This document shows, in pieces, positions 1,164-57,831 of a stretch of DNA of 64,000 nucleotides. The notes beneath the pieces are model-generated. The model did not search any database. It saw only the letters and a program-made list of their open reading frames with translations, and was not told where the DNA came from. The stretch is taken from the NCBI GenBank assembly GCA_963708025.1, contig CAVPSB010000031.1, positions 32,001 through 96,000 of the forward strand. The letters are read 5' to 3'. Position 1 is the stretch's first letter; each line of letters begins with the position of its first letter. A program made the translations under genes and the position numbers. The DNA comes from an uncultured Candidatus Rokubacteria bacterium (GTDB taxonomy: Bacteria > Methylomirabilota > Methylomirabilia > Rokubacteriales > DASRDR01).

Positions 1164-2855
1164 TCAGAACTCCTCGGCCTCGTCGTGCAGCCCGCCGCCA
1201 TTCCGCGGCGCGGACGCCATGGCGGGCATCCGGGGAGCCGGCGCCCGCTTGCCCCCGATGATCACCCCCGGCTCGACCGTGGCTGGCCGCCTGGTCGGCC
1301 CCTCGGCGGCGGCACCCGCGGTCCCGAGCTTGAAGCGCCCCACCAGCCGGTGCATGTCGCCGGACTGGGAGGCGAGCATCTGGGCGGTTGACGAGAGCTC
1401 CTCGGTCTGGGCCGCGTTCGACTGCACCACGTGGTCCATCTGGTTCACGGCCCGGTTGACCTGGTCGATCCCCTGGGACTGCTCCTGGCTGGCGGACGCG
1501 ATCTCGGCGATGATGTCCGTCACCCGCTTGACCGAGCTGACGATGTCCTCCAGGGCCTGCCCGGACCGGTTCACCAAGGCGGAGCCGTCGTCCACCTTCT
1601 GCACCGAGTCCCGGATCAGCGCCTTGATCTCCTTGGCGGCCGCCGCCGACCGTTGGGCCAGGTTCCGCACCTCGGCCGCCACCACCGCAAAGCCCCGGCC
1701 CTGCTCCCCCGCTCGGGCGGCCTCCACCGCCGCGTTCAGGGCCAGCAGGTTCGTCTGGAACGCGATCTCGTCGATCACCGTGATGATCTCGACGACCTTG
1801 CGCGAGGCGCGGCTGATCTCGTCCATGGCCGAGATCGCCTTGAGCACGACCTGGCCGCCCGCCGCCGCCGTGTCGCGGGCCCCCGCCGCCAGCTGGTTGG
1901 CCTGGCGGGCATTGTCCGCGTTCTGCTTGACCGTCCCCGTGATCTGCTCCAGGCTGGCGGTGGTCTCCTCCAGCGACGCGGCGTGTTCCTGGGTTCCGGA
2001 CGACAGGTGCGTGGCGGCGCCCGAGAGCTGCTGCGACGCCGTGCCGACGTGAGTCGAGGTGTCGCGGATCTCCTGGACCAGCGCGTGGAGCTTGTCGAGG
2101 AAGACGTTCAAGGAAGAGGCGAGCTGACCGACCTCGTCCCGCGCGACGACGGGGAGCCGCACCGTGAGATCAGCATCGCCCTGGGCGAGCTCGTCGAGCC
2201 GGTCGACGGCCGCCCGGAGGGGCCGCGTGATCCGACCGGACGCGTAGGCGTACGCCAGGATCCCGACGAGCAGCGAGAGAATCCCCACACCGAGGACGGT
2301 CCAGACGGCCTGCCGCGCCGCCGCTTCCACTTTCTGGGTGGAGACGCCGATCCGCACGACGCCGATCCGGCCCAGCCCCTTGTAGGTCACGGGCGCCACC
2401 ACCTCGAAGAGGCTCGGCGCGTCGGGAACGGTCGCCTGCACGAACCCGGTGGCCTGGGCCATGGTCTTGTCGAAGTCCGTCCGCAGGCCATTCAGCCGGC
2501 GGTCCGTCGTCGCGACGACCTCCCCCTTCGCACTGACGACGGCGGCGTAGGCCACGTCGGCATCGGCGGCCTTCGCCCCGTTGACGATCTGCTGCATGGC
2601 CTCGTCCTCGCCGAGCGAGAGCGGATCGGCCAGCCCGGTCGCGAGCGTCTTCACCAGGAGCTCCGCGCGCTTCGCGAGGCTCTCCGTCAGGGCGGCCTGG
2701 TTGGACCGAATGAACAGCGTGCCAAGCAGCGCGAGGGCGGTGACGAAGACCACCACGAAGGGCAGCATCAGCTTCGTGCGCAGCCCGACCCGTCTCCGGC
2801 CGTTCACCGTCGGCGCCTCCCGTCCGGCCTGATCCGGGACGTGGTCACTTGCCAC
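1164..2855 (-). CDS. methyl-accepting chemotaxis protein (2 TM, HAMP, MA domain)
   Basis: Signature [44 protein letters not shown] motif DEVGQLA; two hydrophobic segments. Confidence 0.95.
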
Positions 2856-3864
2856 TGGCGGCCTCCTTCAGCAGGCTGAGGTCGACCAGTTCGGCGGCCT
2901 TCTGGCTCGACTTGGCGATCCCCAGCGACCGCGACCAGCCGATCTCGCGGTCGAAGAACTCCATGTCCTTGTCGCTGATGGCGTAGTCGAAGCCCACCCG
3001 CTCCCGGGCCATCCGCGCGATCTCGGTCGTCACCCCGTCCTGCTTGAACGCCCGGGCGATGAGGTCGTTCGCCTCTCCCTGGCTGGTTGTGAGGAACTTC
3101 ACGGCATCGACGTGCGCCCGCAGGGCCCGGACCACGGCGTCCCGGTTCTCCTTCAGGAAGTCCGTCCGCACGACCACGACGTACCACGGGTGATGCGGCG
3201 CGGCGTCCACCGTGTTCACGATGACCTTCGTCTGTCCCCCGAGCAGGTACTGGGTGGTGAACGGCTCCACCGTCATCGCCCCGTCCACCTGCTTGTTCAT
3301 CACGACCTCGCCCTTGCCTTCCTCCGCCATCTGGATGACCTGCACATCCGTCTCGGGATCCAGCCCCCCGAGCTCGCGGAGTAGGAAGGCGCGGAGGATC
3401 ACGTCGTTACCGCTGTTCTTCCGCGACCCGGCGACCTTCTTGCCCTTGAGGTCCTTGAGGGCGTTGATCCCCGAGTCCTTCCGCACCAGGATCGAGCCGA
3501 GCCCGAAGCTCGACTTGGCGATCACGGCGACCGACAGACCGCCGCGCAGCATGTCGTGGTAGGTCGGCAGGAACCCGACGTAGGCGATGTCGAGCTCCTT
3601 GGTGGAGAGGCCGCGGGACACGGCCGGCCCGGAGGCGAACGACTTCACCTCGGCGTCGAGGCCGTGCTTCTTGAACAGACCCTTCTCTTCGGCCACGACG
3701 GCGGGCGAGTTCCCCATGTGGTAGTTCCACCCGACCTTCACCTTCTTGGCGGCTTGCCCATCACTCTGGGAGACCAGCGCGGTCGAGACCATCACGCACC
3801 CGAGGAAAAGGGCCAGCACCGGCTTGGCGAGTGTCCCTGTCATCGTTCGGTTCCTCCCAATCAC
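2845..3864 (-). CDS. SsuA/NMT1/THI5-like substrate-binding protein
   Basis: Signal peptide; motifs [21 protein letters not shown] and EPF; overlaps the MCP start by 11 nt. Confidence 0.88.
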
Positions 3865-4498
3865 GACTGACCGAGTCGCGGGCTACGGGAGCCTTCTCCC
3901 GGCGTCGACTCCGGCTCACTGGAGAAGCTGCCGCTCGCAGCGATCACGTGGCCGCGGTTCATCGTTCCGGAGCGGGCGACATGGCGATGCTGCGAGCCTC
4001 ATCAGTAGAACCGATCGACCTCGGAAACACCTTGGAAAATGTGCAGGAGCGTGCTGCGTGATCTGCCTCTCAGCGACGCTGTGCGGCGCGAACTGGCCGA
4101 AAGGAGGCTAGGGAGGCGGAAGTGGCCACGATCTGGCCAGGGGCCCCGCGCTGCCCCCGATTACAGTCTACGGCCAGTTCGAGGTCGATCCGTGCCGGCG
4201 AGCGCCGCGCCGACCCTCGGCCGCCGGCGGCCATTGGGGCGGGCCCAGGATCCCGACGCGGCGGCCGCCCTGCGTCATGGCGCCGCTCCGCTGGAGCGGG
4301 CAGACGCCGTCGACTTGAGGTCGCCCGGGCTGAGCCCCGTCCGCCCGACGTCGGCCCCAAGGTGGGGGCGCGCGCGGGCGGCAGTGAGCCCGCGGACACG
4401 AGCATTCGGGCGAGCGTCCCACGGCCAGCACAGGCGCGTGACGGGGAGCGAATCACGCCGCCACCCGACCATCGAGCGGCGGCGTGACGATCTGCCGA

Positions 4499-5256
4499 TC
4501 AGAGCGGGCAGGCCCCGAAGTGCGTCGGCCCCTGCTTGAACAGCAGCCTGTTGGCGAGGATCTCGTCGGCGATGGCCTGGCCCACGCCGATCGCGAACCC
4601 ATTGCTGAAGCTGAAGTGGAAGCCGCCGACAACGCGCGAGAGACCAGCCTCGGCCGCGGCCGCCGAGAAGCTCGGGTACGTCCGGGGTGCGTTGGGGAGG
4701 GGTTGGGGCGGAGTGGTTGGCGTCGTGTCCGCCGTGAAGGTGAACGAGATGTTGTCATTGCAGAAGAAGCCCGCCAACGCCCGCGCGGCCGATCCACTGA
4801 ACGTGCTGTGGCCGGACCAGTACTCCGGCGACCCACCGACGCTGCCGGCGCGGGCCGTCCAGGTCGCATCCCTGTCCGTGAAGGAGTTACCGTCCGTGTC
4901 GGCCTCCCGGATCGCCGTGGTCGGCCGCCAGTGCCGGAATATGAACTTCGTCATGTACGTGGGAGCCACAGTGTCGGCCATGGCCATGCTGACCAGCGTG
5001 AAGAGCCGCGTGGCGTTGACGAGCCCCAGCTCCGGGCTCGACGAGACCGCCTCCGTGACCTGGATCCACGCCCCTGGAGGCTGGCTCGTACTCGCGCCGA
5101 GGCTCCAGAACCGGAAGGTGGCGAGCTTGCCGTCATCGGCGATGCCACCGTTGCCGAGGAGCTTGACCTCGGTGAAGGCCGCCGCGTAGTCGAGGCTCGT
5201 CAGCGCGGGCGGGCCGGTGACACTCACGTAGACGCTGGAGTCGGCGATCCCGAAGG
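4499..5256 (-). pseudogene. C-terminal part of a vanadium-dependent haloperoxidase / PAP2-like protein (5' truncated)
   Basis: Motifs KFIFRHWRP, PEYWSGH and SRVVGGFH; no start codon, and the upstream sequence is unrelated. Confidence 0.75.
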
Positions 5257-5465
5257 CGCGATCGTCGGCGCGACGTCGATGTTGCCGGAGGGAGTCTGGC
5301 TCCGCAGCCCGCTCCTGAAGTGCGGTCCGGCGGCGATCAAGGTGTTCCGTACGTTGACCCGCCCGGGCGTGCCGTGGTCGCCGCGGCGCACCCACATCCC
5401 CGTGTACGTCGTGCCCTTCACGCCCTGCAGGGTGGCCTCGGGGTCGTCGTTGTAGGCCACGAACA
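5257..5465 (-). pseudogene. fragment of an alkaline-phosphatase-superfamily phosphodiesterase
   Basis: RGDHG...VRNTLIAAGPHFRSG..SGNIDVAPTIA is typical of the C-terminal region of type I phosphodiesterases. Confidence 0.6.
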
Positions 5466-5738
5466 GGCGTCATGTTGGCGAGCCCCTCAGCCCCGGCAAG
5501 GCCCGTACCCACGTCCGATGGCGGCGAGCAGGCGAGAAGCTCAACGGCTGAGGACCGCTTTCCCGCCTGGACGCAAACGGCCTTCTGGCGTGACCGTCTG
5601 GCGAAAAGCCTACCCAAAAGCAGACCGCGTTTGCACAAACCAGAAAGGCCCTGGCGCCGTCCGCCCACTGCTGGCGCGGGCCCGCCGTCTGAAATTGGCC
5701 GACCGTACCGATCCGGCTGCCGCGACGGCGGCACCCAT

Positions 5739-5754
5739 TGGCACGAAGCTCGCA
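5739..5754 (+). promoter_or_regulatory. putative sigma-54 (-24/-12) promoter upstream of the RRE operon
   Basis: TGGCACGAAGCTCGCA versus consensus TGGCACG-N4-TTGCW (one mismatch). Confidence 0.45.
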
Positions 5755-6010
5755 CTCTAGGGTCGCGCCTTTGCAGCTGAACCCTGCGATGTGGCCCTCG
5801 CACCCACGACGAATCGTCAGCGAGGGGCGAAATAGCGGAGATTGCGCGGGGGGAGGCGCCATGACCGGCCAAGTCGGGTGTCCCTGTGATCGTGGGCCTT
5901 GGGGTCACGGAGGGCGGCATGCGGATGACCGACGGAATGGTCGAGCTCCTGGAGCAGCGGCTATGAGCAGCGGGGATTGACCGTCGAGGCTTCCTGAGAG
6001 GAGGAGTGCG

Positions 6011-6472
6011 GTGGTCACTATGCAGAGTCGGTTTCGACTGAACGAGCAAGAGGCTTCGGCGAGCTTTATTGACGGCGAGGCGATCATGATGAACATTGGC
6101 ACGGGAGTCTATTACAGTACGGATGCGGTAGGCGCGCGCATTTGGGAGCTGGCAGCAGCGGCATACAGCCCCGCCGAGATCGGAGAGATACTTGCGGGCG
6201 AGTACGAAGTGGGACCCGATCAGGCGCGCGCCGACACGCTGGAGCTCGTCGGCAAGTTTGTTGACGAGGAGCTGGTGCGTCCGGCTGACCCTGTGCGCGT
6301 TCCCGAGCTTCCTCGAACCGATTCCGCTCGCGGTAAGAAGCCATACACCCACCCAACCCTCGACATTTATCGTGAGATCGGACACTTGCTCGCCCTGGAC
6401 CCGCCAATGCCCGGCCTTGAAAACATTTCGTGGGGCGACGCGCCCGCCGGTCCGACGCAGGCGGGCAGCTGA
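6011..6472 (+). CDS. PqqD-family RiPP recognition element with a C-terminal leader-like extension
   Basis: RRE fold pattern IDGEAIMMNIGTGVYYSTDAVGARIWEL..EYEV..ARADTLELV; tail KKPYTHPTL (YxxPxL); GAGGAG RBS (start at 6011 or 6020). Confidence 0.88.
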   Translation: MVTMQSRFRLNEQEASASFIDGEAIMMNIGTGVYYSTDAVGARIWELAAAAYSPAEIGEILAGEYEVGPDQARADTLELVGKFVDEELVRPADPVRVPELPRTDSARGKKPYTHPTLDIYREIGHLLALDPPMPGLENISWGDAPAGPTQAGS

Positions 6473-6489
6473 CGAAAGGCGTACCGGGC

Positions 6490-7626
6490 GTGCAAGACAC
6501 TGCCACCCTCGTCGAACCCCTGCTCGCGGCAGAGTGGTTCGCTCACGTCGGTGCGCGTTTTGATCATGCGCAAGTTGCGCATCCGCAGGCGTTCTGCGAG
6601 AGATACTATCTTGCAGCAGGCAGGCCGATCGTAATTCGATGCGTCGGCCGCCGCTTCGCGGACCACCTGTACCGTGCGTTCGCGCACCTGGCGATCGCGC
6701 CGGTCGCCGCACCCGCGCTCACCATCGAGTTGTGGGACGAGGGCGAGACCGGAATCTCGTATCCCCTTGCCACATACCCGATTGAACCCGGATTGACGCA
6801 CAACTCGGAGGGCGAAGTCTTACGTGCGGATACAACCAGTCGTTTTTTTTGGTCTGAAAAGGAGGGCGCGGTGACGTGGCTGGACCGCAAGACGAGTCGA
6901 ATTCGCGGGTGGCGCGCCAACGGCAACCCTCCGCCGACGCACGAGCGCTCCAAGCCCATGACTTTTTTATTGTCGCTGTGGCTGTACGATCGGGACATTC
7001 ACGTATTGCACGCGGGAATGACAGCACGCGGCGAAAGAGGCGTCTTGATCGCCGGGGGCAGCGGCATTGGCAAGACCACTACGGCGCTCTCTTGCCTGAT
7101 CGGCGGATTTGACTATTTGTCAGACGATCAAATTGCGGTAGAGCAAGTGTCGAGTGAATCCACCGGGGGTGCGCCCGTTCCAACCGATACGGTGATCGCG
7201 CATAGTCTCTTTCACAGCGCACGCCTCGAACCTGCCCACCTGGCCAACTTTCCTGCCCTCCAACCCCACGCCATACCGAGCACGGATGCGTTTCATCAAA
7301 AATTCCTGGTCCTCTTGGCTGAACTGTTCCCGGAACGGATCCGGCGGCGCGCCGTGATTTGTGCGCTCGTGCTGCCCCGAGTGGGATCAAGTGCGGAAAC
7401 ACGGTTCCGGCAAGCCCGGCGCGTCGAGGCGTTTACATATATGGCGCGGACGTCGCTGTTGACACCTCTCGGAGCGGGACGGCGGCGATTCGAGCGGGTA
7501 AATCAGCTCCTCGCCCGCGTACCCTGTTACTGGCTCGAGTTGGGTCACGATTTGACAACTATTCCGGCGGCGCTCGACCGGATCTTGAGCGAGAGCGTAC
7601 CGCCTGCCGGGCAAGGCGCCGAATGA
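6490..7626 (+). CDS. HPr-kinase-like P-loop serine kinase
   Basis: LHAG...GVLIAGGSGIGKTT (Walker A)...YLSDD; likely GTG start at 6490. Confidence 0.82.
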   Translation: MQDTATLVEPLLAAEWFAHVGARFDHAQVAHPQAFCERYYLAAGRPIVIRCVGRRFADHLYRAFAHLAIAPVAAPALTIELWDEGETGISYPLATYPIEPGLTHNSEGEVLRADTTSRFFWSEKEGAVTWLDRKTSRIRGWRANGNPPPTHERSKPMTFLLSLWLYDRDIHVLHAGMTARGERGVLIAGGSGIGKTTTALSCLIGGFDYLSDDQIAVEQVSSESTGGAPVPTDTVIAHSLFHSARLEPAHLANFPALQPHAIPSTDAFHQKFLVLLAELFPERIRRRAVICALVLPRVGSSAETRFRQARRVEAFTYMARTSLLTPLGAGRRRFERVNQLLARVPCYWLELGHDLTTIPAALDRILSESVPPAGQGAE

Positions 7627-8321
7627 ATCCCCTCGTCAGCTGCATCGTGGCGGTTTACAACGGCGAGCGATTCCTGGCAGAGACGCTCGAGAGCATTTTC
7701 GCTCAGACGTACGAGCCGCTGGAAGTGCTCGTCGTAGATGATGGTTCGACCGACCGTACGCGCGAGGTGGTGGAGCGGTGGGGCGCGCGCATCCGATACA
7801 TCTGGCAGGAAAATGCCGGGCCGGTCAAAGCACGCAACAAGGGAATCGCCGCCGCGCAGGGGGACTTGATCGCCTTTACAGATGCGGATGACCTTTGGCT
7901 TCCGGACAAGACGGCGCGCCAGGTAGCGCGCCTCGTCTCGCCGCCGGTCATCGGCGGGAGCGTGACGCTGATCCAGAATTTTTGGATGGATGAGCTTGAA
8001 CACGAGCGGGAGCAGCTCAAGAATCACCCGCGCGCCCAACCGCTGCCGGGGTATGTTGTTCAGACCCTCATGGTCCACCGGAGGACCTTTGACCGGCTTG
8101 GCTTGTTTGATACCACACTGATCCATGCGTCCGAATTGGACTGGTTCCTCCGCGCGGAACAAGCCGGAGAGGTTATCGAACTGCTGTCCGAGGTGCTGGT
8201 CCGCCGTCGAATGCACTTGAACAGCATGACCCGCCAGGGCGGAGACCGCAGCCGCAAGGAGCATTTGCGTGTGCTCAAGCGCCACCGGGACCGGCAGCGC
8301 GTGCGCCGGGACGAGGGATGA
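7623..8321 (+). CDS. glycosyltransferase family 2
   Basis: VSCIVAVYNGERFL, VVDDGSTD, ARNKG and FTDADD motifs; ATGA overlap with the kinase gene. Confidence 0.93.
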   Translation: MNPLVSCIVAVYNGERFLAETLESIFAQTYEPLEVLVVDDGSTDRTREVVERWGARIRYIWQENAGPVKARNKGIAAAQGDLIAFTDADDLWLPDKTARQVARLVSPPVIGGSVTLIQNFWMDELEHEREQLKNHPRAQPLPGYVVQTLMVHRRTFDRLGLFDTTLIHASELDWFLRAEQAGEVIELLSEVLVRRRMHLNSMTRQGGDRSRKEHLRVLKRHRDRQRVRRDEG

Positions 8322-9466
8322 AGGCCCTTCTCTGGACCGAAAAGTTCTACCCCGCGCTCGGCGGCGCCGAGCACGGTGCCCTTCAATTGATTCAGGCGCT
8401 GCGAGCGCGCGGTCATGTTTTCGCGGTTGTCACCACTCACTTTGACCCGAGCTTGCCCCAGGTCGAGGTCCATTCAGGAGTTCTCATTCGCCGGTTCAAT
8501 CTCCACGCTTCAATCGCCGCGGGAGATCTTTCTCAAATAGTTCGAGAGCGGCAGCGTGTGGCCGGGTTCAAGCGCGAGTTCGCCCCCGATCTCGACCACA
8601 TTTTCGGAATCAGAGCACTGGGGGTTTTTTATTTACACACCCGCGCGTCCTTTCCTGCGCCCCTACTTGTCTCGCTGCGGAACAGTATCTCGGAATTCCG
8701 GGGCGCGCTAAGCGAGGACAGTGTGCCACGCGCAGTGCTGGCAAGCGCCGATTGGGTCACCACGCTCGTGCGGCAAGATATTGATCCCCTCCTCAACCTG
8801 CTGCCGCAACTGGCCCGGCGAATTTCCTATATCACGAATGCGATCCAACCGCTCGCTCTCAACCCCGTACCTCTGCCGGAGACGCCGCGCCTGCTGTGCG
8901 TGGCGCGCTTGGCAGAGCAAAAGCGGCTCGACCTCTTGCTCCGTGCCTTTGCTGAGGTGATTCTGTCCGCTCCGCGTGCGACCCTGACGATCGCGGGCGA
9001 CGGGCCCGACCGCCCGCAGCTGGAACGGCAGGTCGCCGAGCTTGGATTAGCGAGCTCGGTCCAATTCCTCGGCTGGGTTCCTCCCCCCGAAATTCCGAAT
9101 CTCATTAACTCGGCGACTTGTCTCGTGCTGGCGTCCGATCGCGAAGGCATCCCACGGGTCGGATTGGAGGCGGCCGCGCTCGAACGGCCGTTGATCGCTA
9201 CGCGAGTGGGCGGCGTGCCGGATTTCGTTGTGGACGGGGAGACAGGGCTGTTGACGCCGCCCGGCGATGTCAGCGCGCTTGCCCGCGCGATCACTTTTAT
9301 GCTCAGTCACCCGGAGCGCGCGGCCGCGATGGGGCTTGCGGCGCGAACAAGAGCGCAAGAACATTTTCGCTTTGAGCAGGTAGCAGATGCATTTGACACG
9401 CTCTACCGGCAGCTAGCTCGAGCCGAGCCGACGAGGGAAAATGAATGTCTTGTTTTGGACCAGTAA
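8318..9466 (+). CDS. glycosyltransferase family 4
   Basis: FYPALGGAE, ARLAEQK, EGIPRVGLEAAA and TRVGGVPDFV motifs. Confidence 0.93.
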   Translation: MKALLWTEKFYPALGGAEHGALQLIQALRARGHVFAVVTTHFDPSLPQVEVHSGVLIRRFNLHASIAAGDLSQIVRERQRVAGFKREFAPDLDHIFGIRALGVFYLHTRASFPAPLLVSLRNSISEFRGALSEDSVPRAVLASADWVTTLVRQDIDPLLNLLPQLARRISYITNAIQPLALNPVPLPETPRLLCVARLAEQKRLDLLLRAFAEVILSAPRATLTIAGDGPDRPQLERQVAELGLASSVQFLGWVPPPEIPNLINSATCLVLASDREGIPRVGLEAAALERPLIATRVGGVPDFVVDGETGLLTPPGDVSALARAITFMLSHPERAAAMGLAARTRAQEHFRFEQVADAFDTLYRQLARAEPTRENECLVLDQ

Positions 9467-10553
9467 TTTTCCGCCCTCGATCGGGGGTGTGCAAACGGTC
9501 GCGGCGGAGCTGCTGCCGGCTCTGCGAGCTCGCGGCCACGAGCTGACGGTAATTACGACGCACGTCAATTACACTCTGCCCGACGAAACGACCTTTGAAG
9601 GAATTCCCGTTCACCGTTTGCACTTTTTGGCCGCGCTGAACACATGGGATGGACGATCGGTCCTCCAGGTGGGCCGTCGCGCGGCAAGCCTTGTCCGCCG
9701 GATCGCACCCGATGTGCTCCACCTGTTTGGGATCGGGGCGACCGACGTGTTCTTTATTATGGCGCGCAAGAATCTCCCCGCGCCGACGCTGGTCACTTTG
9801 CAGAATGAAAACTCGAAATTACTGCGCGAGCACAAGCATCCCTCGCACCTGTCCAGCGTACTCGCGTATGCGGACCGTGTTACGACCGTTGCCCGCGTCG
9901 AGGTAGAACGGCTCGCCCAGCTCGAGCCCCGGCTGGAAGGACGGGTCTCTTATATCTACAACACACTCAAGCCGCCTGCAGTCGAGCCGGCGCCCCTCCC
10001 GGCGGCGCCGCGCCTGCTGGCATTGGGTCGGCTTGTGCCTCAAAAGTCATTTGAGGTTGCTCTATGCGCGTTCGCGCGCGTTGCTCCAACCTATCCGGAT
10101 GCGCGTTTGATCGTCGCCGGAGACGGACCCGAGCGCACCAAGTTAGAGAACCTCGCTGCGGAATTAGGGATAGAAAATGCGATAGAGTTCAGGGGTTGGG
10201 TGCAGCCCGAGGAGGTCCCCGCCTTGATCAATCAAGTCACGGCCGTCGTCCTGCCTTCGCAGCTCGAAGGGCTGCCGCTGGTCGGGATCGAGGCTGCCCA
10301 GCTGCGGCGGGCCTTGCTTGCGACGCGCGTAGGGGGACTGCCCGAGCTGGTGCTGGATGGTGAAACGGGCTTTTTGTCAGAGCCGGGGGATGTTGCCGCG
10401 CTGGCGGCGGCAATGGACGTCGTGCTGGCGAACCCGGAGCGCGCGCGGGCCATGGGCCTGGCGGCACAACAGCACGCCCTCGAGGTCTTTTCCTTTGATG
10501 GCATGGTGGACGCGTATGATCAGCTCTACCGCGAGCTAGGCACTCGCGCGTAG
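9441..10553 (+). CDS. glycosyltransferase family 4
   Basis: FPPSIGGVQ, GRLVPQK and EGLPLVGIEAA motifs. Confidence 0.93.
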   Translation: MNVLFWTSNFPPSIGGVQTVAAELLPALRARGHELTVITTHVNYTLPDETTFEGIPVHRLHFLAALNTWDGRSVLQVGRRAASLVRRIAPDVLHLFGIGATDVFFIMARKNLPAPTLVTLQNENSKLLREHKHPSHLSSVLAYADRVTTVARVEVERLAQLEPRLEGRVSYIYNTLKPPAVEPAPLPAAPRLLALGRLVPQKSFEVALCAFARVAPTYPDARLIVAGDGPERTKLENLAAELGIENAIEFRGWVQPEEVPALINQVTAVVLPSQLEGLPLVGIEAAQLRRALLATRVGGLPELVLDGETGFLSEPGDVAALAAAMDVVLANPERARAMGLAAQQHALEVFSFDGMVDAYDQLYRELGTRA

Positions 10554-10567
10554 AACTTGTCGGTCGC

Positions 10568-11677
10568 ATGCGCATTCTATTCTGGGTGGATGCTTTCTAT
10601 CCGGGGATCGGAGGAGTGCAGGTCCTCGGGACTGCGCTCGTGCGTGCCCTGCGGCGACAGGGGCACGAACTCCTCGTCTTCGGCGGACCGTACCTGTCCG
10701 ACCGCGCCGATCCGGATGTGTTTGATGGAATTCCGCTGTATCGGTTTCCATTCGAGTACCTCGTACACCCTCATTCGCCGGAGATGATTGGGCGGATCAA
10801 GCGAGAGCTGGCCGGTTTGCTCCACGCGTTCAAGCCGGACCTGGCTCACATCTTTCACGCGTCTACGGGGTTTGTTCTTTATCTTGAATCCGCGAACGCC
10901 GCGCCTGCGCCAACACTCTTGACCCTGCACGGAAATCCCCTCAACGCGACGCCGCCGATCAACGCTGCACGCCGGCGCTTGCTTCGCGAGGTGGATTGGA
11001 TTGCATGCTGCTCCGAGGCGCTGCGCGCCGAGATGGTCCAGCTCGTCCCCGAGATCTGGGATCACTGCTCGACCGTTTTGAATTCTCTCGAGATGCCTCG
11101 GGAACGACCCGAACCTTTACCAATTGCCGAGCCGCGGATTGCCTGCATCGGACGACTGGATCCGCAAAAAGGATTTGATTTCGCGCTGGACGCCTTTGCG
11201 CTCGTCGCGTCCAAGTTCCCGCGCGCCAGACTGGTCGTCGCAGGGGACGGACCCGAACGCGCAGCGCTGGAAGCGCAAGCTGATCGGCGGGGGATTCAAG
11301 AACAGGTAGATTTCTGTGGTTGGTTCCCTCCGCCACGTGTCCCAGATCTTCTGAATCAAGCCGCGCTCGTCCTCATGCCTTCGCGATTCGAGCCGTTCGG
11401 GTTGGTCGCGCTCCAGGCGGCGCAAATGGGGCGTCCGGTAATCGCGTCCCGGGTCGGAGGGCTGCCCGAAGTAGTCGTGGACGGGGAGACGGGGCTCTTG
11501 GTAGACCCTGAAAATGTCCCCCTGCTCGCGCAGGCTATCGAGTCGCTCCTCGCGCAACCGGACCGCTCCGTCGAGATGGGGGCGCAAGCACGCGCGCACG
11601 CCGAGAGGAACTTTTCCTGGGACCGCTTTGTCGGACACTATGAGATGCTATACAAAAGGCTCACTCTCTCCCTCTGA
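10568..11677 (+). CDS. glycosyltransferase family 4
   Basis: FYPGIGGVQ, GRLDPQKG and EPFGLVALQAA motifs. Confidence 0.93.
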   Translation: MRILFWVDAFYPGIGGVQVLGTALVRALRRQGHELLVFGGPYLSDRADPDVFDGIPLYRFPFEYLVHPHSPEMIGRIKRELAGLLHAFKPDLAHIFHASTGFVLYLESANAAPAPTLLTLHGNPLNATPPINAARRRLLREVDWIACCSEALRAEMVQLVPEIWDHCSTVLNSLEMPRERPEPLPIAEPRIACIGRLDPQKGFDFALDAFALVASKFPRARLVVAGDGPERAALEAQADRRGIQEQVDFCGWFPPPRVPDLLNQAALVLMPSRFEPFGLVALQAAQMGRPVIASRVGGLPEVVVDGETGLLVDPENVPLLAQAIESLLAQPDRSVEMGAQARAHAERNFSWDRFVGHYEMLYKRLTLSL

Positions 11678-12798
11678 TGTCAACTCTTGACGGCGCGGGC
11701 GCTGTCCCTCTGGCAAATGCGCTCGCGCAGTTATTGCCCACGGCGGACGAGACTTTGTTTCTGCGGGCATGCGTTGACCGGGGCCCGGCCGGCGCGTCGG
11801 CCTGGCGCACGTGGCGCTCGCGGCACTCGCTTGCCGCTGAGCTGGAACGCGGGCGCGGCGCGTTCAAGCATCTGGTCCCTGTGTTAGCTTTTGCGCTCGA
11901 ACAGAGTCGAGCCGATCTCGAACCGTCCGATTTGCCCGTGCTCCGCGCCGCGCGCTTGCGCGAAGGGCTGCGCAGTCAGAAGTACTGCGAAATCCTACTG
12001 GAAGCGCTCGCGGGGCTCGGACCAAGTCCGGATGCACTGCTGCTCAAAGGGGAGGTACTCTCTCAAACCGTCTATCCTGCCGCGGGCTTGCGGCACTCGC
12101 ATGATATTGACGTCCTGATCCGAGGGTCAGATTTGGAACGGGCGGTTGCGGCGTTGAGGCGTTCTCGATTTCAACCGCAAGGCGAAGCATACCGGCAGAG
12201 CGCGGACGATCGCACGCTGGTCCATTCGAGCGGCCTGCCCCTTGAACTGCATACATCGCTCTTTGCGCAACCCACAGGGACATCCTTTACAGAGCAAGCG
12301 CGGGCGCGCCGCGTTCAAGCGGTTATTGAGACGGGTGGGGAGGGTCGCCGTGAGACCCGCGTGCAGACCCTCGCGCGTCCGGATGCCCTGGTGCACGTGC
12401 TTGGACACGGGTTCGATGCGGGGCCGCGCGGGTCATTGATGTGGGTGAGCGACGCGTATTTCTTGATTCACAACACGCCCGCGTTGGATTGGGGCGAGGT
12501 GTCGGCCGGCGCGGTCCGGGCGCAACGAGGACTCGCACTGTACTTGACGCTGCGCTATCTCCGGTCCGGGCTCGATGTGCCTGTGCCTGTAGAGACAATC
12601 GGACAATTACAATCCGCGGCACAGGATGCCTCGTATGTAGAGTATGGGCGGGCGTTGTCGGTGCTGCGGCGTAGTGGGCGAGGTGGATATCGCCGGCTGC
12701 TCGCGCAGACCGGCAGCGTCCGCGAAGGCGTGATTCTGGCGCGGTGGATGGTCCGGCGTCGCAACCTGGCCGCGGTCCGGGCGCGCTGGGGTTTGTAA
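11677..12798 (+). CDS. uncharacterised nucleotidyltransferase family protein (NTP_transf_5-like)
   Basis: LLKG..L...YP..GLR...DIDVL and LELH motifs. Confidence 0.82.
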   Translation: MSTLDGAGAVPLANALAQLLPTADETLFLRACVDRGPAGASAWRTWRSRHSLAAELERGRGAFKHLVPVLAFALEQSRADLEPSDLPVLRAARLREGLRSQKYCEILLEALAGLGPSPDALLLKGEVLSQTVYPAAGLRHSHDIDVLIRGSDLERAVAALRRSRFQPQGEAYRQSADDRTLVHSSGLPLELHTSLFAQPTGTSFTEQARARRVQAVIETGGEGRRETRVQTLARPDALVHVLGHGFDAGPRGSLMWVSDAYFLIHNTPALDWGEVSAGAVRAQRGLALYLTLRYLRSGLDVPVPVETIGQLQSAAQDASYVEYGRALSVLRRSGRGGYRRLLAQTGSVREGVILARWMVRRRNLAAVRARWGL

Positions 12799-12980
12799 AG
12801 ATGAGTTACCTAATGATGGTCCTGTAGGGCGCAAGAACCGCATCACGCTGCGTGCTCATAGACACAACATCGATGCTGACGGCAATCAGTTCGACTTCAC
12901 AGTGGCTCTCGGCGGGAGCACGGTCGGCTATCGCACCCCTAGCCGGACCGGCGCAGCTCACCCAGCGTGCGGGGCCTGAC

Positions 12981-13129
12981 GGGATCGGACATTCGGGCCT
13001 CCTCCGGCGCCCCGGTCGGGGGCGCTCGCCTCCATCCTACTCCACCAGTCCGGTAGAATGGCGCGCGAGGAGGCGGGGACGATGACGGCGTGGACGATCC
13101 TCGTGATGGCGAGCCTGTGCGAGGTGGTG
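12981..13129 (+). repeat. direct-repeat copy of the promoter and first 16 codons of the SMR gene at 35069-35218
   Basis: Near-identical sequence including CCACCAGTCCGGTAGAATGGCGCGCGAGGAGGCGGGGACGATGACGGCGTGGACGATCCT. Confidence 0.92.
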
Positions 13130-13287
13130 TCGACGTGCTGGCGTGCCCTCGCTGTGGCGGGCGGCTGCGCGTGATCGCCACGGTCGAGGACCCGCTCGCG
13201 GTACGCCAGATCCTCGCCGCCCGGCGTCCGGCCGAGACGCTCAGGCCTGGCCGCCGGCCCCGGCCGGGGCCCCGCCATCGCACCTGA
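13127..13287 (+). mobile_element. IS91-family-like transposase 3' remnant
   Basis: VDVLACPRCGGRLRVIATVEDPLAVRQIL resembles the C-terminal CPxCGG tail of IS91-type transposases. Confidence 0.65.
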
Positions 13288-13565
13288 CCTCCGCCGACTG
13301 AGTGCCGCCTCGTGCGACGACGGATGAGAAGTCTGCGCCGGGTTCGCTGAGCTGGCAGGCGCCCCCGGAGGGCAACGACCAGGCGGTTGAGTAAGGGACT
13401 CGAACCCGCGATCGAGCCGCGATCGCGCTGTCGCCTGGCGTCTCAGTGTGCTGCATGCGATGAAGCGTCGAAGCCGCGGGACGCCGTCCACACGTCGGAC
13501 CGGCCCGCGAGATTTCTGGCCCCGCCCTACGGCCGTTCGACATACCATGCAGGGCGGAGCTGATC

Positions 13566-15392
13566 ATGAATCCGACCACGAGGAAGACCCCTCGGGCGCT
13601 CGAACGGCAGGCCGCGGCGATCCGCCGCCTCGAGGTCCGCGCCCAGCGACCGAGCAGACGGGAGCTCCTGCGGGCGGGAGCCCTCACGGCCGGGGCCGCT
13701 CTGATGTCGCCGGCGCTCGCGGCGGCTCTGGCACCGCCCAAGACCGTGGCCCGCAACCGGACGCTGGTCGTGGTGTGGGGAGGCCGCGAAGGGCGGTGGG
13801 TGGACCACGAGCTGTGGAACCCCTACGCCGTCGGGTCCAATCACCAGAACGGACCCGGCCTCCTCTACGAGCCCCTGGCGTACTACAGCGCGTTCGCGGA
13901 CAAGCAGCACCCCTGGCTGGCCTCGAGCCACCGCTACAGCCTCGACGCCCGGGAGCTGACCATCAAGACCCGGCCCGGCATCAGGTGGAGCGACGGCGCA
14001 CCATTCGGCGCGGACGACGTGGCCTACACCCTGAACAGCCTCCGCGACCTTGGCCCCAAGGTGAGATGGGGCGTCGACGTCCAGCAGTTCATGCAGGAGG
14101 CCCGGGCCACGGATGCGAGCACGGTCGTGGTCCGGTTCAAGGTACCGGCGCCTCGGTTCTTCCACTTCCTGACTTACAAGTACGACATCGGCGTCTACGT
14201 CGTGCCGAAGCACATCTTCCAGGGCCAGGACTGGACCACGTTCAAGCACTTCGATCCGGACAAGGGCTGGCCGGTCACCACCGGCCCCTGGAAGGTGGCC
14301 TTTGCCTCGCCTCAGCAGAAGGTGCTCGACCGGCGAGACGAATGGTGGGCGGCGAAGGCCGGTCTCGCGCCGATGCCCAGGGTCGAGCGCAACGTCTGGC
14401 TCCCGTCTGCCGGCGAGCAGACGGTCGCGCAGGCGCTCATCACGAACCAGATCGACACCGCCATGTCCATGCAACCCAGCACCATCCAGACCATCTTCCG
14501 GCAGAATCCCCGGATCATCACCCACACGGGCGAGAAGCTGCCCTATGGCTACATGGATTGGTGGCCGTATTCCCTGTACGTGAACAACGAGCGGCCGCCG
14601 TTCGACGACAAGGACGTCCGGTGGGCGCTCAGCTACTTCATCGACCGGCAGCGGGTCGTCGAGGTCAGCTTTGCCGGGGCCGCGGAGCCGTCGCCCCTTC
14701 CAATGCCCTCCTACCCGGCGCTGCGTCCCTACATCGACTCGGTCAGGGATCTCCTGGCGAAGCACGACACGCTGGAGTTCAGTCCCAAGAAGGGCGAGGA
14801 GATTCTCGTCAGGAAAGGCTGGAAGAGAGACGGCGTGGGCTTCTGGGAAGACGCCCGGGGCAACCGCCTCACCCTGGATATCATCGGATTCGGGGCGAGT
14901 GGCCCCGCGACGGGGCCCGTGGTGGCGGAGCTGCTGAGGCGCCAGGGCGTTGACGCCCGGTTCAGCCTGCCGCCGGATTTCGACGACCGCTTCCAGAAGG
15001 GTCACTACGCCGGCGCGATCTACGGGCACGGCGGGAGCGTGAACGACCCGTACCACACCCTCCGGCTCTACCAGAGCTCAACCGTGGCGGTGCCGGGCGG
15101 CCACCTCGTCAACTTTTCCCGCTGGAAGAACGCAGCTTACGACAAGATCGTGGACGAGGTGTTCGTCACCAGCATGAGCGACAGGACGAAGCTCACAGAG
15201 CTGTTCCGCAGGGCCATGGAGATCTGGATTCCCGAGCTGCCCGACATCCCGCTGACGTACAACTACCACCGTATCCCGATGAATACGAGCTACTGGACGA
15301 ACTGGCCGACCGAGCAGAACCCCTACGTCAACGGCGCGTCCTGGCACTTGACGTTCGCCATGGTGCTCTGGAGTCTCCAGCCGACCCAGTAG
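13566..15392 (+). CDS. ABC transporter substrate-binding protein, family 5 (Tat-like signal), no adjacent permease
   Basis: SRRELL twin-arginine; motifs RWSDGAPFGADDVAYT and PPFDDKDVRWAL. Confidence 0.9.
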   Translation: MNPTTRKTPRALERQAAAIRRLEVRAQRPSRRELLRAGALTAGAALMSPALAAALAPPKTVARNRTLVVVWGGREGRWVDHELWNPYAVGSNHQNGPGLLYEPLAYYSAFADKQHPWLASSHRYSLDARELTIKTRPGIRWSDGAPFGADDVAYTLNSLRDLGPKVRWGVDVQQFMQEARATDASTVVVRFKVPAPRFFHFLTYKYDIGVYVVPKHIFQGQDWTTFKHFDPDKGWPVTTGPWKVAFASPQQKVLDRRDEWWAAKAGLAPMPRVERNVWLPSAGEQTVAQALITNQIDTAMSMQPSTIQTIFRQNPRIITHTGEKLPYGYMDWWPYSLYVNNERPPFDDKDVRWALSYFIDRQRVVEVSFAGAAEPSPLPMPSYPALRPYIDSVRDLLAKHDTLEFSPKKGEEILVRKGWKRDGVGFWEDARGNRLTLDIIGFGASGPATGPVVAELLRRQGVDARFSLPPDFDDRFQKGHYAGAIYGHGGSVNDPYHTLRLYQSSTVAVPGGHLVNFSRWKNAAYDKIVDEVFVTSMSDRTKLTELFRRAMEIWIPELPDIPLTYNYHRIPMNTSYWTNWPTEQNPYVNGASWHLTFAMVLWSLQPTQ

Positions 15393-15456
15393 CCGCATCG
15401 CGCAGGTCCACCCGCGCCATGCCGCACCGAAGACACGGTCACTCCGTGCCAGCCGC

Positions 15457-17125
15457 TCATCCTGCCTCCACCGGGACGCCCACCTCCACGCCGCGCGCCC
15501 GCAGCTCCCGCGTCGCGGCGACGAGGTCGGGCCACGCGCGGAGTAGCGCCCCGTAGCCGCGCACGAGCTGCTGGGCGAACACCTGCGCCTCGTCCAGGGT
15601 CCGCTGGCCGGGCGCCGCACCCGGGCCGCCGTAGTGCCGTCCCTCGGGCCCCGCGACCTGGCGGCTGACCACCAGGTCGCGGGGGACGAAGAAGGCGTCG
15701 GTCCGCAGCGCGTCGCGCACGGCGGCCACATGCTGCCGGACGTCCTGGGCCCAGTACGCGGGGGCGTCTCCGTGCTCGCGAAGCAACGCCTCCAGGTGCT
15801 CCAGGTAGCGGGCCTTCTGCGCGAGGAATCGGGTACGGACGAACGTCCGGAAGTCGGGGACCGGCAACTCGCCCAGGGACACGAGGTGGGCACCCAGCGA
15901 GCGCAAGCGTCCCTCGGCATCCGCGCCAGGCGGCGGGGCGTACGAGCGGACGCAGTGGACCATCAGCTCCCCGCTGCGGATCCACGCGGCGGTGCGGGAG
16001 ATGTCCTCGCGGGACCATCGGCGGCCCTCGTCGCTGTCGTGGAGTGCGGCCCAGGGAAGGTGGGCGAAGTAGGCGTCCTCGAAGCACGTGCGCAGCGCGA
16101 TCCGGAAGACGCCGTCCTCGTAGCGCTGGACGGGCATGAAGGGCGGCAAAGGAACGCGGTTGTCGAGGCCGAGCAGGGTGGCCTGGCAGAATCGCCCGTC
16201 GGTGATGGTAGGCCGCGGCACCACGCGCAGCACCTGGCGCGACGCGCAGGCACTCAGGTACGCGGCTTCGGTGCTGGTGAAGCGCTCCCGCGATCCGCCC
16301 GTGAGCAAAAGGAGCCACGTCGGCGAGTACCAGCCGATGTCACCGAACAGGCCGGTGAACGTGATTCGCACCTGGCCGCCGCGGGCGACCACGCGGTCCA
16401 GGAGCTCCGGCGCCCAGCGATCCAGTACGAGGGGCTCGCCCGGAGACCCCCGACAGGCACGCTCCCAGGTCGCGGCCCAGCAAGGGCTCGTGCAGGGCGA
16501 GCGCGTCCATGTCTTCGCAGTGGATCGCGCGCTCCAGCACGGCGCGGTCGCCGAAGAACCAGAAGTCGGCCGGGTTGTAGTTCCCGTAGCCGTCTCCGCG
16601 GCCGGAGAAGAGCTCCAGCCCCCGTGTGCGCGCAGGGGATGGGGCGAGCGCACAGACCACGTCGTCGTCCACGCTCAGGAACGGCTCCCCCGCGTTGGCG
16701 AGCAGGAGCGCGTTCCGGTTCGCCCCCGCCGCGAATCCGCAGCCCATCACGTCCAGCACCCCGAAGCGGGCCACGTCAGGATCGATTCCCAGGCGCGCCA
16801 GCCGGTCCACGAACGTCTCGCGCTCGCGCGGGCCCAGGTAGCGGATCTCCAGTGGGTCCGGGTCCGCCGCACGTAGCGCCGCCAACGCCTCCCGGCACGC
16901 GGCCTGCGTGGTCGGGGCCTCCGAGTTGTCCGCCACGACGAAGCGCGGGCGCCGCCCGTGCCGCCGGGCGTTCTCTCGGAAACTGGCGAGCGCGCGGGTC
17001 ACGCTCCCGACGCGATCGCGGGTGAGCAGCCCAACCACGGACAGGGGTGGCAACGGCTCCGCGGGGCCGATCTGGGCCTCCAGGCGCGTCCGGACTTCCG
17101 CCGCCGTCACCCCGCCTACCCTCAT
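15457..17125 (-). pseudogene. GT-A-fold-like hypothetical protein split by a frameshift near 16445
   Basis: N-terminal half (TRDR, VVADNS, GANRNALLL, SVDDD) continues in another frame (GLDNR..LPPFMP..RYEDGVF); the switch lies at a G5 run. Confidence 0.6.
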
Positions 17126-56264: not shown

Positions 56265-56294
56265 GTGTGCCGTCGGTCGGCGATCGCGGCGCCG

Positions 56295-57650: not shown

Positions 57651-57831
57651 GACCCCAACCTGTCGCGGATGTCCAGCACGGAGGCTCTGCCGGTTGCGGA
57701 CCAGGATACATCGGGGCCAGCCGGCGGACCTAGGAACTTCACCGGCCGCGCGGCAGTGGCGTTCCACTTCGAGCCGCGGCGTCCGACGGGGGCATCGGGG
57801 AGGCCTTCCGAGATCCCCCGAAGCACTCAGT

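Follow-up and report, generated by a model that had tools for sequence, protein, structure and literature searches.

The stretch of DNA analyzed here, 64,000 nt of contig CAVPSB010000031.1 from an uncultured Candidatus Rokubacteria bacterium (called the window below), carries at positions 6011-12798 of its plus strand a cassette of seven genes that probably assembles a phosphate-linked sugar chain, carried by a protein or peptide, along an undescribed route. The genes encode a protein with a RiPP recognition element (RRE; RiPP, ribosomally synthesized and posttranslationally modified peptide), an HPrK-like kinase, one GT2 and three GT4 glycosyltransferases, and a nucleotidyltransferase-fold protein of the NTP_transf_5 family. 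The most informative feature of the locus is the C-terminal tail of the RRE protein, which opens with a leader-like motif. In the current understanding, an RRE acts as an adaptor that binds a leader peptide supplied separately; here, the motif and the RRE are parts of the same chain. We tentatively read the locus as a self-contained, horizontally mobile cassette for cytoplasmic, RRE-guided phosphorylation and glycosylation, an overall interpretation to which we give slightly less than even weight. All evidence from the source genome is that of the window.

The RRE protein, its tail, and the kinase

The first gene (6011..6472, plus strand) encodes the RRE-tail protein of 153 aa, which comprises a PqqD-type RRE (aa 23-89), a variable linker (aa 92-111), and the conserved tail with the motif YTHPTLDIYREIGHLLALDPPMPGLENISW (aa 112-141; 6344..6433, plus strand). 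The Pfam model PqqD matched the protein with 51.4 bits (cutoff 23.4), and the NCBIfam model lasso_PqqD_Bac matched it with 49 bits, below its cutoff of 80. When the family profile was compared with the PDB, TbiB1 was the best match (E value of 4.9e-18), followed by 9X90_B, 9X8Z_B, and TfuB1. By these sequence comparisons, the RRE belongs to the lasso type.

A search with the whole protein yielded 666 homologues at an E value of ≤1e-3 among 811 candidates. The best 120 homologues were almost all 131 to 167 aa long (one had 268 aa) and covered 83 to 100% of the query. The linker following the PqqD domain, which ends near residue 90, is variable and rich in Pro, Ala, Ser, and acidic residues. It leads to a C-terminal segment, YxxPxLxIYRDMGxLLALDPPxPGL..W in its main form; a conserved segment of this kind was present in all 10 RRE homologues from the related loci described below. 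The pattern [YFW]..P.[LVIFAM]..[YFW] was present past residue 80 in 118 of the best 120 homologues, and the other two were off at one position. Column conservation, computed on 122 sequences, was 1.00 for L126, L127, L129, D130, and P131; 0.99 for P115, A128, P132, and P134; 0.98 for Y112 and W141; 0.96 for M123; 0.95 for L117 and Y120; and 0.94 for R121. This conservation equals or exceeds that of the RRE core. A second tail variant, FxxPxL..[Y/F]xDMxxLLLLDPIH[D/E]VD..GWP, was found in four of the related loci (L008, L009, L010, and L012).

The first six residues of the tail correspond to [Y/W]xxPx[L/V/I/F/A], described as the motif by which the leaders of lasso peptides, pyrroloquinoline quinone (PQQ), and the LPP family bind to discrete RREs (PMC6784204, PMC13381572). 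We also compared the binding groove itself with that of the LPP protein LppB, whose register was set by aligning 9X8Z_B with the numbering of the paper, more than 10 named residues agreeing. In the alignment, the counterpart of LppB D70, which forms a hydrogen bond with the leader Tyr, is D75 (Asp in 96% of the family), that of LppB Y60 is Y65 (kept in 94%), and that of LppB N33 is D38 (Asp in 92%) (PMC13381572). From this alignment, the peptide groove of the RRE looks functional.

The AlphaFold2 (AF2) model of the RRE-tail protein, based on a 62-row alignment, had a mean predicted local distance difference test (pLDDT) score of 84, with 76 to 77 in the linker and 96 for residues 111-120. In the model, a strand (117-120) follows directly after PxL, and a helix spans residues 123-129. 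The strand takes the position at which bound lasso and LPP leaders extend the RRE sheet (PMC13381572), and a Foldseek search with the model returned the TbiB1-leader and TfuB1-leader complexes as the best matches. We consider it likely that the leader motif docks in cis in the RRE groove, as read from the confidence pattern and the secondary structure and not from coordinates.

A profile made from the tail alone matched 2038 clusters (50% identity) at an E value of ≤1e-3 and 59 at ≤1e-10. Among 144 further matches of this profile, 60 were ≤120 aa long, and most started within the last RRE helices; the short matches look mostly like truncated gene calls. In a few short database proteins (P0172, P0199, and P0236), the tail stands behind unrelated N termini, namely, a lipoprotein-like signal, a signal-like segment, and a GT2 start, which may be due to frameshifts, assembly chimeras, or true alternative fusions. 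No protein of 30 to 83 aa sharing words with the tail was found. A tblastn search of plasmids with the RRE protein returned only lasso or PqqD RREs of the ordinary kind, with matches to residues 1-95.

The second gene (6490..7626, plus strand) encodes a ScmC-type, HPrK-like P-loop phosphotransferase of 378 aa. It matched the Pfam model Hpr_kinase_C with 28.1 bits, below the cutoff of 33.3, and the NCBIfam models HprK_rel_A and HprK_rel_B with 36.9 and 31.8 bits, against cutoffs of 200. At an E value of ≤1e-3, 25 kinase homologues were found among 8000 scored candidates. Nearly all of them were metagenomic, and PF27840 (named ScmC) was annotated on 22. His194, the Walker A motif GGSGIGKTT, and D232/D233 were invariant in 23 kinase sequences. 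The family profile matched HPrK/P structures in the PDB over the P-loop region only (E value of 5e-8). With the AF2 model of the kinase (pLDDT of 87), the best Foldseek matches were phosphoenolpyruvate (PEP) carboxykinases over both domains (E value of 3.7e-10; query-normalized TM-score of 0.47).

A complex of kinase residues 21-398 with the RRE-tail protein was predicted with our own alignments and with three controls. The median interface score (ipSAE) was 0.68, while the best of the three controls reached 0.00. The ipSAE mark was attained by 116 of 157 solved complexes and by 2 of 215 mismatched pairs, counts that hold only roughly here because our own alignments were supplied. The runs shared at least 40% of the contacts, and the partner pLDDT was at least 75. 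On the kinase side, the interface comprises residues 330-362 and, in addition, 30, 131-138, 153-154, and 183-187. On the RRE side, it comprises alternate residues of strands 16-38 and the tail residues 118, 120, 122-123, 126-127, 132-139, and 141. Since both the strands and the tail make contacts, the predicted interface is formed jointly by the sheet face and the tail. By these models, a complex of the RRE-tail protein with the kinase is fairly probable. We know of no solved RRE-kinase complex.

Recurrence, layout, and surroundings of the cassette

With a 10-row kinase alignment, 11 related loci were retrieved from species-representative genomes. They originate from Binatia, Alphaproteobacteria, Sphingomonadales, Gammaproteobacteria (Arenicellales), Thermotogota, Chloroflexota, and unclassified metagenome-assembled genomes (MAGs). 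A cyanobacterial locus on a Crinalium plasmid (L012) was added by a kinase tblastn search of plasmids, giving 12 related loci, all seeded from the kinase. By tblastn with the seven window proteins and Pfam scans, we counted GT2 in 10 of the 11 genome loci and GT4 in 9. NTP_transf_5 was likewise present in 9 loci, with two copies in L003, L005, L006, and L007. A tail-bearing PqqD protein of approximately 150 aa was found in 9 of the 11, and the two loci without it (L001 and L002) are contigs that end beside the cassette. The plasmid locus is annotated with a PqqD family protein, two nucleotidyltransferases, an HPr kinase, two GT-A enzymes, a methyltransferase, a short-chain dehydrogenase/reductase (SDR), an SMP-30/gluconolactonase protein, and an ABC ATPase. 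The order of the cassette genes is shuffled between loci, and the flanks consist of unrelated housekeeping genes. A B2 peptidase gene, typical of lasso clusters, was present in none of the 12 loci. We conclude with high confidence that the seven genes are one conserved functional unit and not a chance neighborhood.

The kinase tree consists of two clades (support of 100/99), which coincide with the two tail variants and do not follow the taxonomy of the MAGs. This match fits coinheritance and horizontal spread and is no proof of coevolution. The cassette genes have a GC content of 0.61 to 0.65 and a GC content at third codon positions (GC3) of 0.68 to 0.77; the flanking sequence has a GC content of 0.69, and the neighboring open reading frames (ORFs), as picked by a GC3 filter, have a GC3 of mostly around 0.9 (range, 0.73 to 0.97; 0.90 in the downstream SBP_bac_5 gene). 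The cassette is therefore a compositional island of low GC3 and was probably acquired horizontally.

All seven ORFs and their Pfam domains were recovered on the plus strand; none of the seven proteins reached a curated NCBIfam cutoff. Behind the kinase gene lie the genes for a GT2 (GT-A) glycosyltransferase of 232 aa (7623..8321; Glycos_transf_2, 119 bits, E value of 1.9e-34) and for the GT4 glycosyltransferases a (382 aa; 8318..9466; E value of 2.9e-37), b (370 aa; 9441..10553; 4e-36), and c (369 aa; 10568..11677; 1.3e-41). The three GT4 proteins matched Glycos_transf_1 with 125 to 143 bits; a and b are 47% identical, and c is 35 to 39% identical to each of them. The GT2 protein has the catalytic-type motifs DDG and DADD and matched the mycofactocin glycosyltransferase model of NCBIfam with 72.8 bits, far under the cutoff of 280. 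The best NCBIfam matches of the GT2 and GT4 proteins were glycosyltransferases of the exopolysaccharide (EPS), teichuronic-acid, and PEP-CTERM types, all below cutoff. The last gene (11677..12798) encodes the NTP_transf_5 protein of 373 aa (PF14907, 87.8 bits, E value of 1.1e-24), which has a metal-binding-type motif, HDIDV (D143/D145), and no match in NCBIfam.

Two gene starts were corrected relative to the initial ORF list. The kinase ORF is open from position 6430, and its start is most likely the GTG at 6490, because a 99% identical database protein has the matching length of 378 aa. GT2 starts with the ATG at 7623, in an ATGA overlap with the kinase stop codon. In gene order, the junctions measure 18, -4, -4, -26, +14, and -1 nt. 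A membrane helix was predicted in none of the seven proteins (highest 19-residue Kyte-Doolittle mean, 1.55), and a promoter and terminator scan of positions 5400-13600 gave nothing exceeding the shuffled expectation. No tRNA genes were found in the window. A PADLOC scan of the seven cassette proteins gave no match; a defense system is therefore not indicated.

Absences in the window were judged by a Pfam scan of 61 ORFs (7 + 20 + 34); those outside the cassette, like those in high-GC loci, were picked by the GC3 filter, so genes may be missed. Among the 61 ORFs, there was no match to Asn_synthase, Transglut_core3, Radical_SAM, YcaO, or ABC_membrane. The same scan detected Asn_synthase, Transglut_core3, ABC_membrane, and PqqD in a positive control (L014, a genuine paeninodin-type cluster), and the absences are therefore meaningful for the ORFs scanned. 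The kinase of this control scored as weakly with Hpr_kinase_C as the window kinase. Neither the 61 window ORFs nor 115 flanking ORFs of the 11 genome loci had a Pfam match to an S24/S26 (SipW-like) peptidase, and neither set contained genes for a priming glycosyl-phosphate transferase, Wzx/Wzy, or outer-membrane export. Transglut_core3 was also absent from the 115 flanking ORFs, and the annotation of the plasmid locus lists none. Besides the RRE-tail gene, no small ORF was kept between the loci, a search that short, unconserved ORFs may escape. The neighbors of the cassette in the window encode a chemoreceptor, solute-binding proteins, and ABC importers. The only transporters among the scanned window ORFs are importer-type ABC permeases, a small multidrug resistance (SMR) protein at approximately 35 kb, and a major facilitator superfamily (MFS) protein at approximately 52 to 55 kb, all distant from the operon.

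These results bear on an initial annotation of the locus that had been made from the sequence alone. Its list of seven packed genes (RRE, HPrK-like kinase, GT2, three GT4, and nucleotidyltransferase) was confirmed for all seven ORFs and their domains. So was, for the ORFs scanned, its statement that no B2 peptidase, cyclase, radical SAM or YcaO enzyme, or exporter is encoded close by. It was also right about the lack of a free-standing precursor, but it had overlooked the leader-like motif fused to the RRE. The recurrence of the set in 12 loci agrees with its view of a non-lasso unit. Homologous loci do not regularly carry genes for a B2 peptidase or a cyclase: the former was found in none of the 12, and an Asn-synthase-like ORF lies within the cassette in one.

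The latter locus (L011) has nearly the gene order of the window and the top identities (43 to 48%). The best match of GT4b lies at 11774-12859 of this locus (45% identity), and that of GT4c lies at 12907-13998 (47% identity; E value of 1e-104). Between the last GT4 gene and NTP_transf_5, at 14149-15963 on the plus strand, L011 has a divergent Asn-synthase-like ORF of 604 aa (TIGR01536, 37 bits; GATase_7, E value of 0.0055; lasso cyclase model, 12 bits), which by these matches could encode a very divergent amidotransferase or cyclase. It has no counterpart in the window. The upstream flank of L011 encodes a typical AsnB, the sequence of which starts with MCG. A radical SAM gene was present in 1 of the 12 loci: in L002, a 3.7-kb contig, a radical SAM/SPASM gene (2531-3397, plus strand) follows GT2, the sole link seen to the radical-SAM cassettes that name PF27840 (ScmC).

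Other neighbors recur in several loci. An SMP-30/gluconolactonase/LRE protein together with an SDR or NAD-dependent epimerase is encoded beside the cassette in 3 of the 12 loci (L006, 8026-9744; L008, 14538-16474; L012, 10372-12810), which hints at an accessory sugar-modifying pair. In two alphaproteobacterial loci, a type I phosphodiesterase/nucleotide pyrophosphatase gene (PF01663) adjoins NTP_transf_5 (L003, 14637-16283, minus strand; L005, 7159-8676, plus strand), and the two products are 48% identical. In L003, genes for a sulfotransferase and an N-acylglucosamine 2-epimerase lie next to it. ABC ATPase genes lie close to the cassette in L009 and L012, and in L003 such a gene is approximately 8 kb away, beside a FtsX/MacB-type permease gene. 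The Thermotogota locus (L007) has two tandem kinase paralogues (8448-10609 and 10593-13016) and an ORF of 807 aa in which two NTP_transf_5-like matches lie; this ORF represents either a gene fusion or a read-through of two genes.

In the window, the 2.1 kb upstream of the cassette (3865-6010) has no clear intact gene and holds decayed-looking fragments; the island may border on decayed DNA here. One of the fragments, at 4499-5350 on the minus strand, resembles the C-terminal part of a PAP2/vanadium-haloperoxidase (PAP2, 32.5 bits; VCPO_2nd, weak), and a convincing N-terminal part is missing. It is contained in a 737-aa ORF (4499-6712, minus strand) that extends in antisense orientation into the genes for the RRE protein and the kinase, where it is surely not real. 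A putative decayed phosphodiesterase gene at 5224-5460 (minus strand) was dropped, since neither Pfam nor tblastn with the L003 and L005 enzymes supported it. Unlinked to the cassette, a gene for a forkhead-associated (FHA)-domain protein adjoins one for a Ser/Thr protein kinase at 55566-57767 (minus strand), and a second GT2 gene adjoins one for an FAD oxidoreductase at 37536-39790 (minus strand).

Proposed mechanism and its rivals

We propose that the YxxPxL motif of the tail folds back into the groove of its own RRE, where it would add a fourth strand to the sheet. According to the predicted complex, the sheet face and the invariant LLALDPPxPGL..W would then dock on the C-terminal helices of the ScmC-type kinase. 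A leader in cis would hold the RRE in its folded state and lastingly complete the recognition surface for the partner enzymes, a reading that the predicted complex fits. From the enzyme set, we infer the steps that would follow. The kinase would transfer phosphate to a hydroxyl in a flexible segment kept near it, the NTP_transf_5 protein may cap the phosphate with a sugar, by analogy to the requirement for PsmN in pseudomycoidin, and GT2 and the three GT4 enzymes would lengthen a short glycan. Since there is no peptidase or exporter in the unit, the product would stay in the cell, attached to protein.

For two of these activities, characterized counterparts suggest what the reactions may be, namely, phosphorylation of Ser and then addition of hexose to the phosphate. 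PsmK phosphorylates the C-terminal Ser of pseudomycoidin, and PsmN is needed for additions of +162 Da, which shield the phosphate from phosphatase (PMC6993621). LppK of the LPP family phosphorylates Ser as well (PMC13381572). LppN was inactive in the published heterologous system, where its deletion had no effect (PMC13381572); the role proposed for the NTP_transf_5 protein therefore has PsmN as its single precedent, which counts among the points against the scheme.

The weakest step concerns the acceptor. It would most likely be the RRE-tail protein, which could serve as a protein primer through its linker or its variable C-terminal end. In favor of such a self-acceptor, a motif-bearing peptide is the substrate in every known system, no other small ORF is conserved in the loci, and the unit contains no lipid-priming enzyme or exporter. 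We nevertheless regard this acceptor role as doubtful, and it is rather unlikely that the tail-bearing RRE is a glycogenin-like, self-priming carrier whose leader, bound in cis, would recruit the kinase, the nucleotidyltransferase, and the glycosyltransferases to build a phosphate-linked oligosaccharide on the RRE protein itself. S36, which is Ser or Thr in 97% of the family, was rejected as an acceptor: it is modeled on the kinase-facing sheet, is Asn or Ala in L008 and L010, and by its predicted position more likely has a role in the interface. A lead of a different kind is Asp130 (window positions 6398-6400). It lies at +18 from the motif Tyr, where the phospho-Ser of LPP sits (PMC13381572), and is invariant in 122 of 122 sequences, with Glu in L007. 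This spacing may be coincidence, and we treat it as a lead only.

Several further findings weigh against the proposed scheme. No Ser or Thr of the tail is invariant among the 122 sequences, and in 20 of these, neither residue occurs past W141. The best-conserved hydroxyls of the tail are those of Y112 (98%) and Y120 (95%). Both residues are Phe in the plasmid copy (L012), and LppK is inactive on Thr or Tyr replacing its target Ser (PMC13381572). Tail conservation is also above that of a usual RiPP core. The P-loop (209-217) and D232/D233 are missing from the listed kinase contacts; therefore, the model describes docking and not a substrate pose, and all structural support is predicted. The whole kinase fold resembles PEP carboxykinase, an enzyme that acts on small molecules, and the window kinase is 38% identical over 68 aa, the P-loop core only, to the kinase of a Priestia paeninodin-family cluster (L013). 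Finally, the linkage counts run from the kinase to the RRE and not in the reverse direction.

In view of the missing invariant Ser/Thr, the RRE protein as a phospho-carrier, which the initial annotation had put forward, is not well supported. It had described the machinery as lasso-derived; the RRE is indeed of lasso type, with TbiB1 as the best PDB match. For the kinase, only the P-loop core is shared and the annotation is ScmC; lasso-derived is therefore an assumed direction and not a result. As a whole, the initial interpretation is partly supported.

It is possible that the RRE-tail protein is an adaptor only, that is, a permanently loaded regulatory or scaffold subunit of the kinase. The acceptor would then be another molecule, either an unlinked protein or peptide or a nonpeptide compound (for example, a sugar, a glycan primer, or a small acid), and the product would be a cytoplasmic phospho-glycoconjugate. 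The lack of an invariant hydroxyl and the distance of the modeled contacts from the P-loop fit such a function, as do the conservation of the tail, which is that of an interaction motif, and the two-domain, PEP-carboxykinase-like build of the kinase. Moreover, LppB is insoluble without leader (PMC13381572), so a leader in cis could merely stabilize the RRE and complete the enzyme-binding surface. Genes of sugar metabolism are also nearby, with the SMP-30/gluconolactonase and SDR/epimerase pair in 3 of 12 loci and a 2-epimerase gene in 2 of 12. However, every characterized RRE delivers a motif-bearing peptide, which here is the tail, and a groove filled in cis cannot recruit a second leader. 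Furthermore, there is no second conserved small ORF, and none of the 115 flanking ORFs encodes a lipid-priming transferase.

The precursors of PQQ and mycofactocin are conserved, unlike the cores of antibiotic RiPPs. Conservation of the tail could thus also be that of a cofactor-type RiPP comparable to PqqA or MftA: the tail would be the raw material, and a residue of LLALDPP..W would receive phosphate or sugar and then be set free by a peptidase whose gene lies elsewhere. The weak match of GT2 to the mycofactocin glycosyltransferase model and, as a lead, the spacing of Asp130 agree with this, and PQQ leaders bear the same RRE-binding motif (PMC13381572). We consider it improbable, because the conserved set has no oxidative enzyme (radical SAM in 1 of 12 loci) and no linked peptidase and because no free form of the tail of 30 to 83 aa was found. 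An ordinary glycosyltransferase island for EPS or lipopolysaccharide (LPS) beside an unrelated or decayed lasso or LPP remnant is very improbable. It would account for the EPS-type matches of GT2 and GT4, all below cutoff, and for the decayed-looking fragments in the 2.1 kb upstream of the cassette, and LPP and paeninodin clusters frequently lie within capsule loci (PMC13381572). Yet GT2 and GT4 accompany the RRE and the kinase across phyla, in shuffled order and between unrelated flanks, and genes for a priming transferase, a flippase, a polymerase, or outer-membrane export were not found among the 115 flanking and 61 window ORFs. The seven genes are intact without exception and closely packed, and 2038 tail-bearing clusters are far too many for a remnant. 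Family size and intact genes also led us to reject a decayed lasso cluster.

If the cassette indeed carries out RRE-guided phosphorylation and glycosylation, the chemistry of LPP and paeninodin, Ser phosphate and then sugar, would extend beyond Bacillota to Proteobacteria, Chloroflexota, Cyanobacteria, and others. Self-priming, if true, would mean a widespread class of cytoplasmic protein phosphoglycosylation with more than 2000 sequence clusters in many phyla, and the first natural RRE fused to its own recognition sequence. A built-in leader would change how orphan RREs without a precursor are read in genome mining, the family being large and present in many phyla. In practical terms, the compact operon of seven soluble proteins is a place to work out the activity of NTP_transf_5, and the fused design may avoid the insolubility of the unliganded RRE that hampered the LPP study.

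Relation to known systems

The closest described concept is the LPP family of Bacillota (LppA/K/B/S/D/N; Popov et al., Nat Commun 2026; PMC13381572). A non-lasso system of RRE, HPrK-like kinase, and NTP transferase, an idea that the initial annotation had presented as new, has thus been in print since May 2026; the cassette described here lies outside LPP. LPP and the cassette have in common a discrete lasso-type RRE, a kinase resembling HPrK, an NTP transferase that is uncharacterized, the motif YxxPx[V/L], glycosyltransferase-rich DNA, and a product that is unknown, as is stated for the final LPP product (PMC13381572). For the kinase and the NTP transferase, this likeness is one of domain types present. 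LPP differs in having a SipW-like signal peptidase (LppS), an MsbA-like pump (LppD), and free precursors of 35 to 200 aa with an N-terminal motif and a fixed, polyphosphorylated Ser. These precursors start with YxxPxVLxHQxIxFETxxS, and LppK polyphosphorylates Ser3 of the core (PMC13381572). The window tail shares only the YxxPxL part with them and continues as xIYRDMGxLLALDPPxPGL..W.

In the window cassette, in contrast, no peptidase, pump, or free precursor was found, the motif is fused to the C terminus of the RRE, and there is no fixed Ser. LPP and paeninodins are stated to be restricted to Bacillota (PMC13381572), whereas cassette loci occur in Proteobacteria, Chloroflexota, Thermotogota, Binatia, Cyanobacteria, and other phyla, with GT2 and GT4 in the core. 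Lacking the peptidase, the pump, and the free precursor, the cassette is not a member of LPP; what it adds is the leader built into the RRE, together with glycosyltransferases in the core set. A natural RRE-leader fusion is not mentioned in the main text of PMC13381572, and in the library searched, no other paper on a cassette of RRE, HPrK-like kinase, and glycosyltransferases was found.

With the paeninodin and pseudomycoidin sets (PadeK/PsmK, PsmN, and the B1 RRE), the cassette shares the structural type of the RRE, an HPrK-like P-loop kinase, a nucleotidyltransferase-fold protein, and the precedent of hexose on Ser phosphate (PMC6993621). It differs in having no cyclase, B2 peptidase, precursor, or ABC exporter, and the likeness of the kinases is limited to the P-loop. 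Of the features of a lasso cluster, the PqqD-type RRE and the motif [Y/W]xxPx[L/V/I/F/A] are present; the cyclase, the B2 peptidase, and a free precursor with a ring-forming Asp/Glu core are not, and the cassette is not a lasso cluster. The complexes TbiB1-TbiA (5V1U/5V1V), TfuB1 (6JX3), LppB-LppA (9X8Z), and PbaB1-PbaA (9X90) are the best matches of the RRE in sequence and fold; the Asp that anchors the Tyr is kept, and the strand after PxL is modeled. There, the leader is bound in trans as a peptide of its own, whereas here it belongs to the same chain, behind a linker of approximately 20 residues.

The kinase matches HPrK/P in its P-loop, His, and DD core and PEP carboxykinase in its two-domain fold, and it differs from both in having no sequence likeness outside the P-loop and no HPr partner. 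The uncharacterized SynChlorMet (SCM), HPr-rel-A, and GAK systems of TIGRFAMs pair a PqqD-family protein with an HPrK-like protein, and SCM is defined by two radical SAM/SPASM enzymes, a PqqD protein, and ScmC. PF27840 (ScmC) is common to SCM and the cassette; radical SAM is absent from the scanned window ORFs and was seen in 1 of 12 loci (L002). Of the components of a Wzx/Wzy- or ABC-dependent polysaccharide locus, the priming transferase, flippase/polymerase, Wzm/Wzt, and export proteins were not found in the 61 window and 115 flanking ORFs. In summary, the most fitting reading of the cassette is that of a non-lasso system distantly related to the tailoring sets of LPP and paeninodin; the hallmark of the cassette is a leader motif fused in cis to the C terminus of the RRE.

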